This document shows, piece by piece, positions 13,784 through 20,529 of a DNA stretch of 64,000 nt. A program made the position numbers and the translations under genes. Source of the DNA: Cladosporium halotolerans (taxonomy: Eukaryota); the NCBI RefSeq assembly GCF_011745625.1, contig NW_027191462.1:558001-622000 (forward strand). The letters are read 5' to 3'. The notes under the pieces are model-generated. The model saw nothing but the letters and a program-made list of their open reading frames with translations, was not told the DNA's origin and made no database searches. Numbering within the stretch: the first letter of the stretch is position 1; every line of letters starts with the position of its first letter.

Positions 13784-15711
13784 CTACACATACAAGGCCT
13801 TCTGCCACCAGCGACACCTCTCATTCGCCGCGGGATCCCTCATCTCATGAATGCTCGTAACATTCAGATTCTGCACCGTCGCGTTCGGCCCATACATGTC
13901 GAAATGCGGCACGCCCTGCCCGTTCGGCTGGCCCTTCATGGCGAAGTTCGTGATGTACTCCTGCAGCGCGACGGCGACCTTGGGGCTTATCACACCGGTC
14001 ATGTCATCGTCGGACGTTGCGTTGGCGTTGTAGAAGGTGTAGCGGACGTCGAGGCCGTGCAGGGCCGGCGGTACGGAGAACAGGTAGTTGTAGGTTTGGT
14101 TGAGGAGGGCGGTCGAGAGGTAGAAGGTGTTGCAGGTGAAGGAGAGCTCGGCGGTCAGGGCGCTGGCGCGCTCGATTTCGGTCGTGTAGTTTTGCGCTTG
14201 GCTGCCGTCGAAGATGGGCGGGTAGAGGGTGTTGACGATGTAGGAGAGGACGTCGGGGAATGCGCGCACGGAGGGTAGGATACTGGAGAGCTGAGTCTTG
14301 ATGTCGGTGGTTGACTTGGTGAAAGGCGAGGTGAACAAGAGGCCCTGGGAGGGTGTCAGCGGGAATGGTGATTTGGAGGGATCTTTCAAGATTGAGCATA
14401 CCTCGTCGGCATTGTGTCCAACCATGACTTTCACGCTCTTGTCGAATTTGCCGTGCAGGAGAGCTTCGCCGGGGAGGACTGGCAGGAAGTCGCCATCGAC
14501 TACAGGCCCGTAGGTGAAGCCACCGTATGCGGCCAAGCCGACCGTGACAGCATTGGCCATTTGCAAAATCGAGCTGTTCAGCTTACGAGCTTCCTCGATG
14601 GTAGAGACGTTGAGCAGCTTAAGGTAGTTCTGGAAGACCTGCTCCTGCTGGTTGCGAGAGACGACTGGGATGAAGCCAGGAGATTGCGGGATGGCCTGCC
14701 AGAGGTGTCAATAAGAGTCTTCCAAAGTTTTCCCTTGGATTGAAAATCATTCTCACCTGACTGAAAGGAGCAGGGCCCTTAAGCCCGTTGTAAGCAGTGA
14801 TCTGGCTCATGATACTGCCGCCACCGGCACTCTCGCCCATGACCGTGACACGCTTAGGATCGCCGCCGAATTTCTCAATGTGCTTCTGAACCCACTCAAG
14901 AGCAAAGCGCTGATCGCGAAGCCCGGCGTTCGAAGCGCCGTCTTCTTGGAAAGTAGGACCGGACAACCAACCGAAAGCTCCCAAGCGGTAGTTTAGCGCG
15001 ACGTAGATTACACCATCGTCACCACCGTTTTGGCTTGCTGCCAGCAGACCTGATGGGTCGAAGTTCGCCGCCTTGGAGCCGGCAGTGTATCTGTGAGACA
15101 AGGCAGGTTAGTGATTGCAATTGATTGAAATCGTTCGTCGGACGACATTGGAGATGGACATACCCGCCACCGTAGATCCAGACAAGCACCGGCGCACCCT
15201 TGCCGTGCTTAGATTTCTCGAAAAGGTGCTCCGGAACAACTACGTCAAGGAACAAGCAGTCTTCCGTCGTTCCCGGAGCAGCGGGAGGGATGATTGAGGA
15301 GTTGAAAGTTGCAAGGTTGACATCACTGACAGAAAAGTTCGCCGGCAATACAGAGTCGAAATCCGATCGATTGAACGACGTTTCGCCCATGAAATAGCCC
15401 ATGAGGAACTGCTGTGTAGTTTTACTCCAGAGAGCGTTCGCTTGCGGGCAGATGGGGTCGGGTCTGGGGTCTTGGACGGCGGTGCGGTTCTTCGCCGGCG
15501 GTTGAGGGGCACGGAAGCGGTTCTCGCCAGTGGGAGGAGCGGCGTAGCGGATGTTGTTGAAGCGGTACAGCTTCGTTGTGTCGTTCAGCGAGCTGGCGCG
15601 GTAGATTTCGTAGCCGAGATCAACTTTGGGTAGTCCTCCATCCTTTGAGGTGGGAGTGGTTGAGGCTACGCTCAGCAGCGACAGAGCCGCTGCGACTGTG
15701 GTGAATCTCAT
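13784..15711 (-). CDS. Secreted type-B carboxylesterase/lipase
   Basis: Signal peptide, NIRYAAPP, TEDCLFLDV, WIYGGGY, NYRLG, GESAGG, LHGLDV; 3 introns. Confidence 0.93.
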
Positions 15712-16844
15712 TGTATCGGTATATTGTTATTAAGCCCAGGTCAAGGTTGTGTCTACTATTAGATTTAAAGGCAAGACCGTCAATACACGCTTAGACCGTC
15801 TCACCCGGCAGTCAAGCGTCCAGTGCGCGAAAGAGTCGCTCAGGCAAGAGAGAAAGGAATCGAAATGCACTCCAGTACGCTCCGCCCAAGGACCTACATG
15901 GTATTATACCGCCGGCTCGCTCGGCATTAAACTTTCGTACCAGCGAAGCGTATTGCCGTCATCTCCAGACAATCGTGGAGTCAGCCCCAACCTCGAGTAA
16001 GGTTAGTCCGGGTTAGGTGGCACAGTAACGGCTATCATCAACCGAGGCACACAGCTTAACGCCTGCTCGCAACGATGCACGACGATGGCCTCGAAGCAGA
16101 CGTGGCGTCGCCCAATGCAGCATCTTGACCGCCGTCGCACCTCTTCGCCAGCCAGCCGGACGAGCCAGCGCAGCAAATGCTCCAGCAGCGGTAACGGGCG
16201 GATCGATTTGACGCATGACGCGCACCAACCCGCGGTGCACGTTCCCGCGGGCGGCAGCTTCTTGCACTTCCTTATATTGGGCAGGTGGATTAGGCGCATC
16301 GATCGAGCTCGCGTGGCTCAGCTCGCTTACGAATGTGCAAATGAGAAAAAGAGGAGAAGTTGCGGAGAAGCGAGGAGGTAGTTCTCCAGAGCCGAGGCAC
16401 CGGGCGACCAGCTGGATTGGGGTGAGGTCAGCGAGTTGTTGGCAGAGCTACTGATGAGAAGTGTACTGTAGGTTTTTGAGGCGGTGATAAGCTTCTGCGA
16501 CTTGGGGCTTTGTATGCGCCTCCATGTAATTGCTCGCTACCTGGGTACAAAGGAGCGGCTGGCAGACTCGTGATCGCGGTGCGACCGACGTTCTGAAGAA
16601 ATCGGAATGACCAGGGCACCCTTGCTGTCGGTCGAGACGGGAACCCGGCGCGAACCCCTTGTTTGCCACGCAACGTGGAAATGGGTAAGGAAGTGAGCAC
16701 GGACTGTGGCTTTGGCAGCGTCGGCACCATCAATCTGGTGCCGTGTTGATGGGCGGAGACGAAGATCTTGGAGTTTTGTTTGAGATAAAGATTGTAACCA
16801 AGGTAGGATGGGATTCTCTGCAGCGGCCGATGGGACAGGTACTT

Positions 16845-17670
16845 ATCCACCAACCACGAAGTAATCAATCAATTCCACCATCCACCATCCAACATCCACA
16901 AATGCACATCCACAAATTCACCGTGGATTTTGTGGATGAAACGACCTTGCCCAACTGACCTCACCACCATCAGGACTCAGGCTACCCGCTTGCCACCAAG
17001 GTAGACCGAAGACGATGATAGCCAGTGTCTTCAATGATCTAGCGTGAAAACAGATAAAATCAGAGCCTGCAGGTTTGCTGACCGTAAATGAACGATCTCT
17101 GAAATCCACAAATCCACAATCCACAGAATCCAAAATCCACAGATCCACGGTGGCTTTCGTGGATGGAACGGCCTTGCACCACCACTAATACCACCACCAA
17201 CAAGATCTATTCCAACAAGATCTGTTCAAAAAATTGAACCGCATTCAAACCAAATGAGAATCAGATCGCCAATGGTAATAGGTTTAACTGAATCATCAGA
17301 GATCATTTTGGCGTGATGGATCAGTCACTGAAATCCACAATCCACGTCCACAATTACGTCCACAATCCACGGTGGATTTTGTGGATGAAACGACCATATA
17401 CCACCACCACCAGTCTCACCATCAAAACATGTCTTTCAAAGGTGATCCGCAATCAAGCCAATGAGAACAAAGCTACCTATCGTCAAAGCCTCGGTGAAGC
17501 ATCTGGGAACTTTGTGGCGTGGTGGATGAATACCTAACAAAACTCCACAATCCACGATCCACATCCACAAATCCACGGTAGATCCACGGTGATTGTAAAT
17601 CGACATCACATCCACACCCACGGTGGATTGAACTTCACGCTCCATGGCCATGGGCATGGATCACCACCAC
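16845..17670. repeat. Degenerate tandem array: ~4 units, ~205-227 bp period, ATCCAC-rich with palindromic core
   Basis: Cores at ~16908, 17135, 17358 and 17563; identical 24-mer GTGGATTTTGTGGATGAAACGACC at 16923 and 17372; about 18 ATCCAC hexamers by manual count. Confidence 0.85.
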
Positions 17671-17968
17671 AGCTGGAATGATACTTTCGAGTACTGCTTC
17701 GCCCTTGCGATTTCGATGACGCTTGCTGAGGTGAATCGTATTTGGAGGTGCTTTTGATAGGGATGCTGACTCATCTCGATACGGCATACGGCATACAGCA
17801 TAACACGCTTTTTCCCTAACCCAGAGCACAACCATGCCGCATCACATCGCATCGTCCCTCGTCCCTCGTGTCGTATCATTCGTGTCCTTTCCCTCTTCAC
17901 GAAATCTTCCACTCGCAACAATACCTAATATCAAGTACCCAGACTCTAGCTCGAAAGACGTAACGTAA

Positions 17969-19510
17969 TTACATGATCTGCACCCATAAGTCAGCACATC
18001 ATCACCCAATCAGCCAAGAATGCTTTCGGGAAACTTACAAACAACAAATCGGTGTCCAGCGGGTGACTGCAGCTCAGCTGCGGCTTCTGGTCGTACTTGC
18101 CCTCGAGCTCGTCGCGGATGCTGTTGAGCAGCTGCACGTAGCTCTGCTGCGGGTTCTTGCGCAGCGCCGCCATGAAGGCGTACGACATGGCGCCGGTCGC
18201 TTTGCCCGCGATGTTGGCGTCGGCCCTGTTCGTGCATTACGCGGTTAGCGGAGGGGTTGGAAAGGGGGGATGGTTGGGGCTTCTTTTGATGAACTTACGA
18301 TGTCTGATCGTCCTTGCTGCCACTCCACATGATGACGTCGGCGGGACTGGTCTTGGTCTTGAGGTTCTTCTGGTAGACGTCGTCGCCCGTCGTGGCTTTC
18401 TTGAAGAACGACATCGCCGTCGACGCCATGCCGCCGATGTCGCCGCGCGCGTACGAAGACACGATACCCAGCAGGCCCTGGCCGGCCTCTTTCGCGAGGT
18501 TGGGCTCCTTGAGCACGCCTTGCGTCGAGTAGACGTACGGCAGGTCGAGCGCGGTGCCGGAGTGGCAGGAGTCGAAGATGGCGGTCAGGCGCACGCCGGG
18601 CTGCAGGGGGCGGACCATGATCTCGTGCATCTGGTCGTCGACGATGTGGCCTGTCTGTCGGAAGTCGACGGGGTAGATGACTTCGTCGTAGCCGTCGTCT
18701 TCGTCGCCCGTCAGGTCCTCTGTCTGCCCGCCGTGGCCGGAGTAGTGGAAGACGAGGGAATCGTTAGGCCGGGCGTCTTTCACTAGCCAGTGCATGGCGC
18801 GGAGGATGTTGGCTTTGGTCGGCTGGCTCATCGGGTTCTGCTGGTCGTCGGTTAGGCACACCATGTCTTCTCTCGCGTAGTTGTGGACCTGGTTGAGGTA
18901 AGTCGACAGGTTCTTAACACTGGCAGTTGTTAGTATGAGGGTTTCCTCCAACACGCAACTGATCCGACATACTCGTTGATACACCCTCTCAGCTGTCCCT
19001 TCTGTCCAAAGTAGTTAATACCAATGAGCAGCGCCTTGCGCCGACCCGTACACGCGGAGTAGGTGAAGCCGTAGTTGCTGGGAGCGCCGTGCCCGAATTG
19101 CTGCTGGCCCTGCGGCGGAGGCGGCGGTCTGCCATAACCACCTGCATACCGATTAGGAGCAGCGCGGGAGGCGTAGTGTCCCTGCCCATACCCACCTTGA
19201 TTGTACATCTGCTGTTGCTGCTGCTGGAAGGGTGTCACGGCCTGGCCGTACTGCTGCGGCGCATTGTTGTACTGCTGGGGCGGAGGAGGCTGCTGGTAGT
19301 GGCCGTAGCTCGGTTGGGGAGCACCGTATCCATAGCCGGGTTGAGGGGGAGGGGCACCGTACTGTCTGGGATTGTCTGTCAGTATGATGTTCAACATGGG
19401 CCACGTGAGAGGGAGTGAACTGACGGTTGCTGATAACCACCGTATCCTTGCTGCGGCGGAGGGCCGTAGTTGTGGTGCTGGTTGTGGTAGCCCTGTCCCG
19501 GGAAGGCCAT
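17969..19510 (-). CDS. MCA1: Metacaspase type I
   Basis: Q/P/Y/G-rich N-terminus, [11 protein letters not shown], catalytic HYSGHG and [18 protein letters not shown]; several introns, last micro-exon IM*. Confidence 0.96.
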
Positions 19511-20434: not shown

Positions 20435-20529
20435 TGGCTCTGCCGTGAATCGAACACGGATCTACACGGACTTGTACGCCCATCGCTGGGCTGCCACAAC
20501 GTGTTATTCTGCCATTAAACCACAGAACC
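20435..20529 (-). tRNA. tRNA-His(GUG) with 24-nt intron
   Basis: Reverse complement: GGTTCTG acceptor / CAGAGCC-A; anticodon stem ACACG/CGTGT with loop TT-GTG-G; intron 20470-20493 after position 37; T-loop GTTCGATTC; downstream T-run terminator (~20417-20421). Confidence 0.92.

Follow-up and report, generated by a model that had tools for sequence, protein, structure and literature searches.

A lineage-specific array of ATCCAC-rich tandem repeat units in the metacaspase-carboxylesterase spacer of Cladosporium halotolerans

In a window of 64 kb from the genome of Cladosporium halotolerans (the whole stretch of DNA that was analysed), an array of non-coding units of about 220 bp, rich in the hexamer ATCCAC and its reverse complement GTGGAT, was found between a metacaspase gene and a carboxylesterase gene. 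The orthologous spacer of the nearest relatives recovered does not contain it. The array is most likely young repetitive DNA rather than a conserved control element or an RNA gene. With modest confidence, it is here regarded as neutral or selfish lineage-specific repeat DNA with no demonstrated host function, whether a complex minisatellite or an element of foldback/MITE type that became tandemised. The contrast between the conserved cores of its units and their diverged interiors is unusually clean, for an ordinary kind of feature.

Hexamer content and unit anatomy

The region from 16845 to 17670 (826 bp) contains 18 copies of ATCCAC on the plus strand and 7 copies of GTGGAT, i.e. copies on the minus strand, which are exactly the numbers that had been estimated in the original prediction. 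These 25 hexamers represent nearly half of the 55 copies present in the window, in 1.3% of its length. In dinucleotide-shuffled versions of the 64-kb window, 30.6 copies were present on average and 44 at most, and a single motif is thus over-represented locally, with 25 copies in 826 bp as compared to the shuffle mean for 64 kb. Clusters with three TCCAC/GTGGA or more in 40 bp are confined to the array (21/21), and no other such cluster was found in the remainder of the window. The hexamers are mostly still exact, since 18 of the 22 TCCAC copies on the plus strand are part of ATCCAC. Their spacings are irregular (6, 7, 8, 9, 12, 14 and 16 bp) and resemble those of a slipping microsatellite, and the plus strand of the array consists of 62% A+C.

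The hexamers are grouped in four clusters, the palindromic centres of which (ATCCAC-G/C-GTGGAT) are 227, 222 and 206 bp apart, in agreement with the offsets of about 227, 223 and 205 bp expected beforehand. Cutting at the palindrome centres delimited three full head-to-tail units of about 220 bp (227, 222 and 206 bp) and two decayed ones. The array is therewith slightly longer than first described, with decayed unit remnants from about 16696 to 17670 and possibly further to the right. The units are as follows.

16696..16921, plus strand: decayed leftmost unit, only the right end of which is recognisable (from unit alignment and hexamer positions)
16922..17148, plus strand: full unit U2, 227 bp, with GTGGATTTTGTGGATGAAACGACC and a CAC-rich tract at its start
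17149..17370, plus strand: full unit U3, 222 bp, with an interior homologous to that of U4
17371..17576, plus strand: full unit U4, 206 bp, with a left-core 24-mer identical to that of U2
17577..17670, plus strand: degenerate last unit, with three CCACGGT(G/A) centres (17571, 17582 and 17616) and a CACCACCAC tract at its end

At the start of each unit stand two inverted hexamers (GTGGAT TTT GTGGAT); GAAACGACC and a tract rich in CAC come next. The middle is formed by an interior of about 115 bp, and the end by CTGAA and 5-6 copies of ATCCAC at irregular spacings of 6-16 bp, which form a heptamer/octamer microsatellite of the type (ATCCAC A1-3)n. Inverted repeats at the unit ends are thereby combined with subterminal short repeats, the start being GTGGATTTTGTGGAT and the end (ATCCAC N1-3)n ATCCAC. 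As the units repeat head-to-tail, a palindrome ATCCAC-G-GTGGAT is located at every junction. The inverted-repeat form originally proposed for these junctions holds overall, with two corrections: the left arm of palindromic unit 1 carries one decayed hexamer (ATCCACAAATTCAC), and the right arm of palindromic unit 2, which is the left core of U3, reads GTGGCTTTCGTGGATGGAACGGCC and differs at 4 of 24 positions. The run of ATCCAC, ATCCAA and TTCCAC at 16845-16921 is the left arm of palindrome 1 and belongs to the right end of the leftmost unit. In U2, the interior of about 115 bp is unrelated to the interiors of U3 and U4 and is followed by CTGAA and (ATCCAC N1-3)x6 at the end of the unit.

The 24-mer GTGGATTTTGTGGATGAAACGACC, described before as identical between the first and the third palindromic unit, is indeed present in exact copies at 16923 and 17372; a search of the 64-kb window with up to 3 mismatches revealed no further copy (0 expected). 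For the palindrome ATCCACGGTGGAT, 11 matches with up to 2 mismatches on both strands were obtained, as compared to 1.5 expected in the window, and all of them are located inside the array at six places (16916, 17143, 17365, 17571, 17582 and 17616). Tandem Repeats Finder, which had been suggested as a check, reported the sub-arrays of 7, 8, 12 and 16 bp only and not the period of about 222 bp. The period of about 220 bp was missed because the units are too diverged, with a whole-unit identity of 51-68%.

Cores and interiors were compared by alignment against shuffles. A strong likeness was found among the left cores (37 nt) of U2, U3 and U4 (z 13.7-14.4, local alignment, 300 shuffles), and U3 and U4 also have clearly homologous interiors (z 14.9 in local and 17.6 in semi-global alignment). 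The interior of U2 showed no detectable similarity to those of U3 and U4 (z 1.2 and 0.6 local, -0.8 and -0.1 semi-global), nor to the positions common to both (z 0.4). That the cores are far more conserved than the intervening DNA was hence correctly noticed from the letters alone (z 13.7-14.4 for the cores versus -0.8 to 1.2 for the U2 interior). Of the further proposal that this conservation is selective, the contrast itself stands, whereas selection is disfavoured by the absence of the array from all eight nearest relatives (see below). The pattern is not tree-like, as the 24-mer is exact in U2 and U4, while U3, the interior of which is nearest to that of U4, has 4 changes. Plain neutral tree-like decay after duplication cannot yield this pattern, which requires very short conversion tracts or slippage, selection, or transposon ends that arrived independently. 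Gene conversion would not usually leave edges as sharp as those of the identical tract.

Gene neighbourhood and the orthologous spacer

The array is located in a terminator-to-promoter spacer between the 3' end of the metacaspase gene and the promoter of the carboxylesterase gene, both of which are encoded on the minus strand; a GH43 gene (Pfam) is located beyond the metacaspase gene. The array lies 1,134-1,959 bp upstream of the carboxylesterase ATG. The following features define the neighbourhood.

13784..15726, minus strand: carboxylesterase gene (Pfam COesterase at 13784-14707 and 15019-15726)
15019..15711, minus strand: first coding exon of the carboxylesterase gene, with the ATG at 15711-15709 (Pfam COesterase, translation)
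16306..16329, minus strand: conserved anchor motif TAAGCGAGCTGAGCCACGCGAGCT in the upstream region of the carboxylesterase gene
17773..17977, minus strand: last exon of the metacaspase gene (spliced RNA contig of run X17, Peptidase_C14, reading frame)
18295..19014, minus strand: metacaspase (Pfam Peptidase_C14)

The RNA contig of run X17 represents spliced metacaspase mRNA with the joints 17977/18039 and 18224/18299, i.e. with introns at 17978-18038 and 18225-18298. The last exon encodes Ile-Met followed by the stop codon TAA at 17971-17969 and has a 3' UTR of at least 196 nt; the contig stops at 17773 and falls short of the array by about 100 bp. In this one RNA run, which was available as assembled contigs, no contig covers 15600-17772 and the carboxylesterase exon is likewise uncovered, so that the run is silent on transcription there. 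The last coding exon of the metacaspase gene (17969-18039, minus strand) contributes only two codons and the stop after a 61-nt intron, the splice being confirmed by the RNA contig, and the junction CAG|(A/G)TCATGTAA is kept in the relatives L007, L008 and L010.

In order to recover relatives, metagenome loci were scanned with the metacaspase exon, which resulted in 80 loci, the best at 91-92% protein identity. Four of these (L007, L008, L010 and L023) contain the metacaspase gene followed by the carboxylesterase gene in the same order and orientation as here, the last long metacaspase exon being 86-89% and the first esterase exon 68-72% identical. Their spacers have a length of 1,495-1,735 bp versus 2,416 bp here, and they contain 0-1 copies of ATCCAC/GTGGAT versus 26 here and no CCAC[CG]GTGG versus three here. 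The anchor CCACGCGAGCT is present in the window and in the four relatives (5/5 sequences). From the stop-codon context to the anchor, the distance is 1,659 bp here versus 599-759 bp in the relatives, and from the anchor to the esterase gene 682 bp here versus 828-967 bp. The extra 900-1,060 bp correspond to the array, because they are located on the metacaspase side of the anchor and match the array in length.

The same was observed in all relatives bearing the anchor (8/8), in which it is located 658-817 bp after the last long metacaspase exon with 0-2 hexamers, and in all loci with at least 700 bases downstream (34/34), in which no more than 4 hexamers were counted over up to 2,500 bp. Since the eight nearest relatives keep the spacer and the anchor and yet are without the array, the array is lineage-specific. 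Among the signs that the original prediction had named for a neutral, decaying minisatellite, absence from relatives was thus found, as far as the syntenic spacers of these eight are concerned. In the spacers of three relatives, no tandem repeats beyond trivial doublets of 7-14 bp and no seed of the array were detected. Allowing up to 5 mismatches, the 24-mer was not found anywhere in the relatives' loci (363,685 bases), and a scan of the metagenome contigs with a degenerate form of it gave 0 matches, which means no more than that the fungus or the core is absent from that collection. A sensitive BLAST search of the window spacer against the relatives' spacers returned nothing at E<=0.01, and in global alignments the spacer was effectively unalignable outside the short start of the 3' UTR and the anchor motif. 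Because the rest of the spacer is unalignable, these relatives are distant enough for neutral DNA to be saturated; the array could therefore be old in its own lineage and yet not shared with them.

Within the species, contigs of the DNA runs X7, X8 and X11 were compared, which represent near-identical strains at low depth and not divergent relatives. Together, these contigs cover 16756-17553 collinearly, with 0 gaps and 0-5 differences per piece. The array is thus present and structurally unchanged in other samples of the species. With 5 differences in 341 nt inside the array versus 3 in 185 nt of the flanking spacer (16584-16768), the array as a whole is no more conserved between strains than its flank. 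A copy-number difference was not seen in these contigs, which are short pieces from few strains, none spanning the whole array. Being specific among the relatives recovered and collinear in the strain contigs examined, the array might serve as a lineage marker.

Coding potential, RNA structure and RIP

The array is non-coding. As had been predicted, no credible open reading frame overlaps it: the longest stop-to-stop frame comprises 89 aa, and Pfam searches gave no match at E<=0.1 for five array frames and one flank frame, nor was there a match for the 146-aa frame at 16428-16868.

The processed hairpin ncRNA array that had also been proposed would be a cluster of structured non-coding RNAs, for which a transcript would be cut at ATCCAC/GTGGAT hairpins into miRNA-like or polycistronic snoRNA-type small RNAs. 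Inverted repeats at each junction speak for it, yet it is now very improbable. A search of 15500-19000 against Rfam at E<=10 found no family within the array, its sole match being a sub-threshold one outside of it, and a tRNA search of the same region found none. Each of the four cores was folded as a 59-mer under DNA parameters and compared to shuffles on both strands; only core 1 formed a hairpin beyond expectation (one of four per strand; z -4.0 and -3.9), while cores 2-4 showed no excess stability on either strand (z +0.6 to -1.6). The arm changes in palindromic units 2 and 3 lead to mismatches and bulges and are not compensated. The hairpin is therefore not maintained: the hexamer persists, the helix does not. 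The predicted stems of 14-15 bp with bulges are moreover short for substrates of Dicer or RNase III. In favour of an RNA, shuffled sequences are somewhat less stable than the array folded as a whole (z -2.6 on the plus and -3.1 on the minus strand); as only 20 shuffles were used for each strand and the long stems in the predicted folds pair arms of different units, these scores say little about a defined RNA.

A scan for box C/D motifs revealed no exact RUGAUGA on either strand of the array, and the candidates at one mismatch are scattered and inconsistent between the units. One of them, in U3 at 17250-17307 on the minus strand, has a box C/D-like layout with an 8-bp terminal stem containing one bulge, UGAUGA, 29 nt and CUGA. 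Although this neat layout would speak for an RNA, it is probably due to chance, as judged from the homologous U4, in which both boxes are lost.

The sub-threshold Rfam match mentioned above, an sR11-like (C/D box) snoRNA at 17950-18009 on the minus strand, reaches 18.3 bits versus a gathering score of 39 and overlaps the last intron of the metacaspase gene. It was judged spurious because its CUGAC (the 'D-prime box', GCUGAC) is likely the branch site of that intron.

A signature of repeat-induced point mutation (RIP) is absent. U3 and U4 differ by 17 transitions and 28 transversions, and the TpA/ApT index is not raised (0.29 versus 0.56 in the window).

Origin and possible function

The reading as lineage-specific repeat DNA agrees with the head-to-tail repetition of a non-coding unit, by which minisatellites and complex tandem repeats are recognised. 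According to this reading, the array would have arisen after the lineage split from the nearest sampled relatives, when unequal exchange or replication slippage may have multiplied a palindromic seed on the spot, the seed being either a stretch of local sequence or the inverted ends of a non-autonomous transposon of the foldback/MITE type. Ordinary point mutation would afterwards have made the unit interiors diverge, while the cores may be kept similar by slippage in the runs of hexamers and by conversion of short tracts between palindromic junctions; alternatively, the cores might be transposon ends that were constrained before tandemisation. How the array arose, by what means it is homogenised and that it lacks a function are what we infer. 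Observations that speak against such repeat DNA include the identity of the 24-mer in U2 and U4 despite an unrecognisable U2 interior and the exactness of most hexamers.

As to its source, a minisatellite born in place can be proposed tentatively. Intergenic complex minisatellites likewise consist of species-specific, head-to-tail non-coding units with internal micro-repeats and cores homogenised by slippage or conversion. Unlike in typical members of that class, the unit here is at its long end with about 220 bp, the units are diverged (51-68%), and no length polymorphism was observed in the strain contigs examined, which differs from a hypervariable minisatellite.

A derivation from tandemised ends of a foldback/MITE-like element, as raised in the original prediction, is possible, if somewhat doubtful. 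It would account for the inverted hexamer termini, for the many irregularly spaced subterminal hexamers and for the conserved ends around unrelated interiors. hAT-type elements carry subterminal transposase-binding hexamer repeats, e.g. AAACGG in Ac/Ds, and their interiors can be unrelated; the array resembles them in having one hexamer in both orientations at irregular spacings of 6-16 bp at both ends of a unit of about 200 bp. Unlike in hAT elements, successive units are directly adjacent, only one base separating their inverted ends, which speaks against a transposon origin, and neither host DNA nor target-site duplications are located between them; the hexamer is a different one, and neither a transposase gene nor dispersed copies were found with the array. 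No second copy was detected in the 64-kb window, in the 363,685 bases of the relatives' loci or in the metagenome contigs. A target-site duplication is not definable, since the array is decayed at its outer edges and the spacer of the relatives is unalignable. Of the earlier suggestion of transposon ends, inverted ends with subterminal repeats are upheld.

The foldback element Tetris of Drosophila virilis is described with tandem repeats of about 220 bp, TIR-220 (PMC4079207). The likeness concerns non-coding tandem units of about 220 bp tied to inverted-repeat termini, as well as repeats of a non-autonomous element serving as building blocks of tandem arrays (PMC4079207). Compared to Tetris, the array of C. 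halotolerans differs in comprising 3-5 units of unrelated sequence at one euchromatic intergenic site of a fungus, and in that no long flanking inverted repeats, dispersed family or partner MITE are known for it.

The main rival of repeat DNA is a selected platform of iterated, putative binding sites for a sequence-specific DNA-binding protein, which we consider rather unlikely. Each core would then offer 5-8 ATCCAC sites, direct and inverted, together with GAAACGACC and CAC-tract modules, and the whole would activate or repress the carboxylesterase gene from an upstream position, or serve as a roadblock or insulator against metacaspase read-through into the esterase promoter. Such a platform would explain the sharp-edged identical 24-mer in U2 and U4, the interiors of which are unrelated, and the intact hexamers, the likeness of the cores being much greater than that of the interiors. 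The extreme and local enrichment of the hexamer, its persistence where the hairpin geometry is lost, and the position of the array, which begins some 100 bp beyond the point where the metacaspase RNA contig stops and lies 1.1-2.0 kb from the esterase ATG on its upstream side, are likewise consistent with it. In its dense short motif in both orientations upstream of a gene, the array resembles homotypic clusters of transcription factor sites. Unlike these, it is not conserved in the relatives' orthologous spacer and is embedded in a tandem duplication. As the eight nearest relatives, which keep both genes and the anchor, are all without the array, any function of it would be new and dispensable in the clade. 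Further points against protein binding under selection are the lack of a second such cluster in the 64-kb window, the 4 changes tolerated in the 24-mer of U3 and the strain differences, which are no fewer in the array (5/341 nt) than in its flank (3/185 nt). Full-text literature searches for ATCCAC, GTGGAT and longer core strings returned no matching transcription factor motif, and to our knowledge no cognate factor is known for an ATCCAC/GTGGAT array. Consequently, of the iterated protein-binding sites originally considered, the dense motif and the alike cores are upheld, while absence from relatives and lack of a matching factor motif oppose the interpretation. The nucleosome spacing that had been suggested together with them is not supported, since nucleosome repeat lengths of fungi are about 155-175 bp and are exceeded by the 206-227 bp measured here.

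A newly born platform, i.e. a lineage-specific repeat co-opted as a roadblock or insulator or as an upstream regulatory region under selection, is unlikely. If true, it would be a case of de novo regulatory DNA caught in the act of emerging from repeat expansion in a fungus, and cores that prove to be protein-bound would show regulatory DNA born from a repeat. As it stands, the array is a well-delimited example of species-specific intergenic repeat DNA and carries very little wider weight. Given searches of the genome and of closer relatives, its identical cores and saturated interiors would provide a compact test case for concerted evolution versus transposon ends versus selection.

Two features outside the array were observed in addition. 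The anchor is part of a conserved double motif, (T)A(C/A)GCGAG...CCACGCGAGCT(C), at 16306-16329 on the minus strand, which is found in the window and in eight relatives (L003, L006-L011 and L023), there about 660-820 bases after the last long metacaspase exon. It contains ACGCG cores, which we take to resemble MCB/StuA-type sites, and the double motif is probably a real promoter element of the esterase gene. The single match of the window at the Rfam gathering threshold is a tRNA gene of 95 nt at 20435-20529 on the minus strand (50.6 bits), upstream of the metacaspase gene; it probably has an intron, because ARAGORN assigned it an odd anticodon of four bases.
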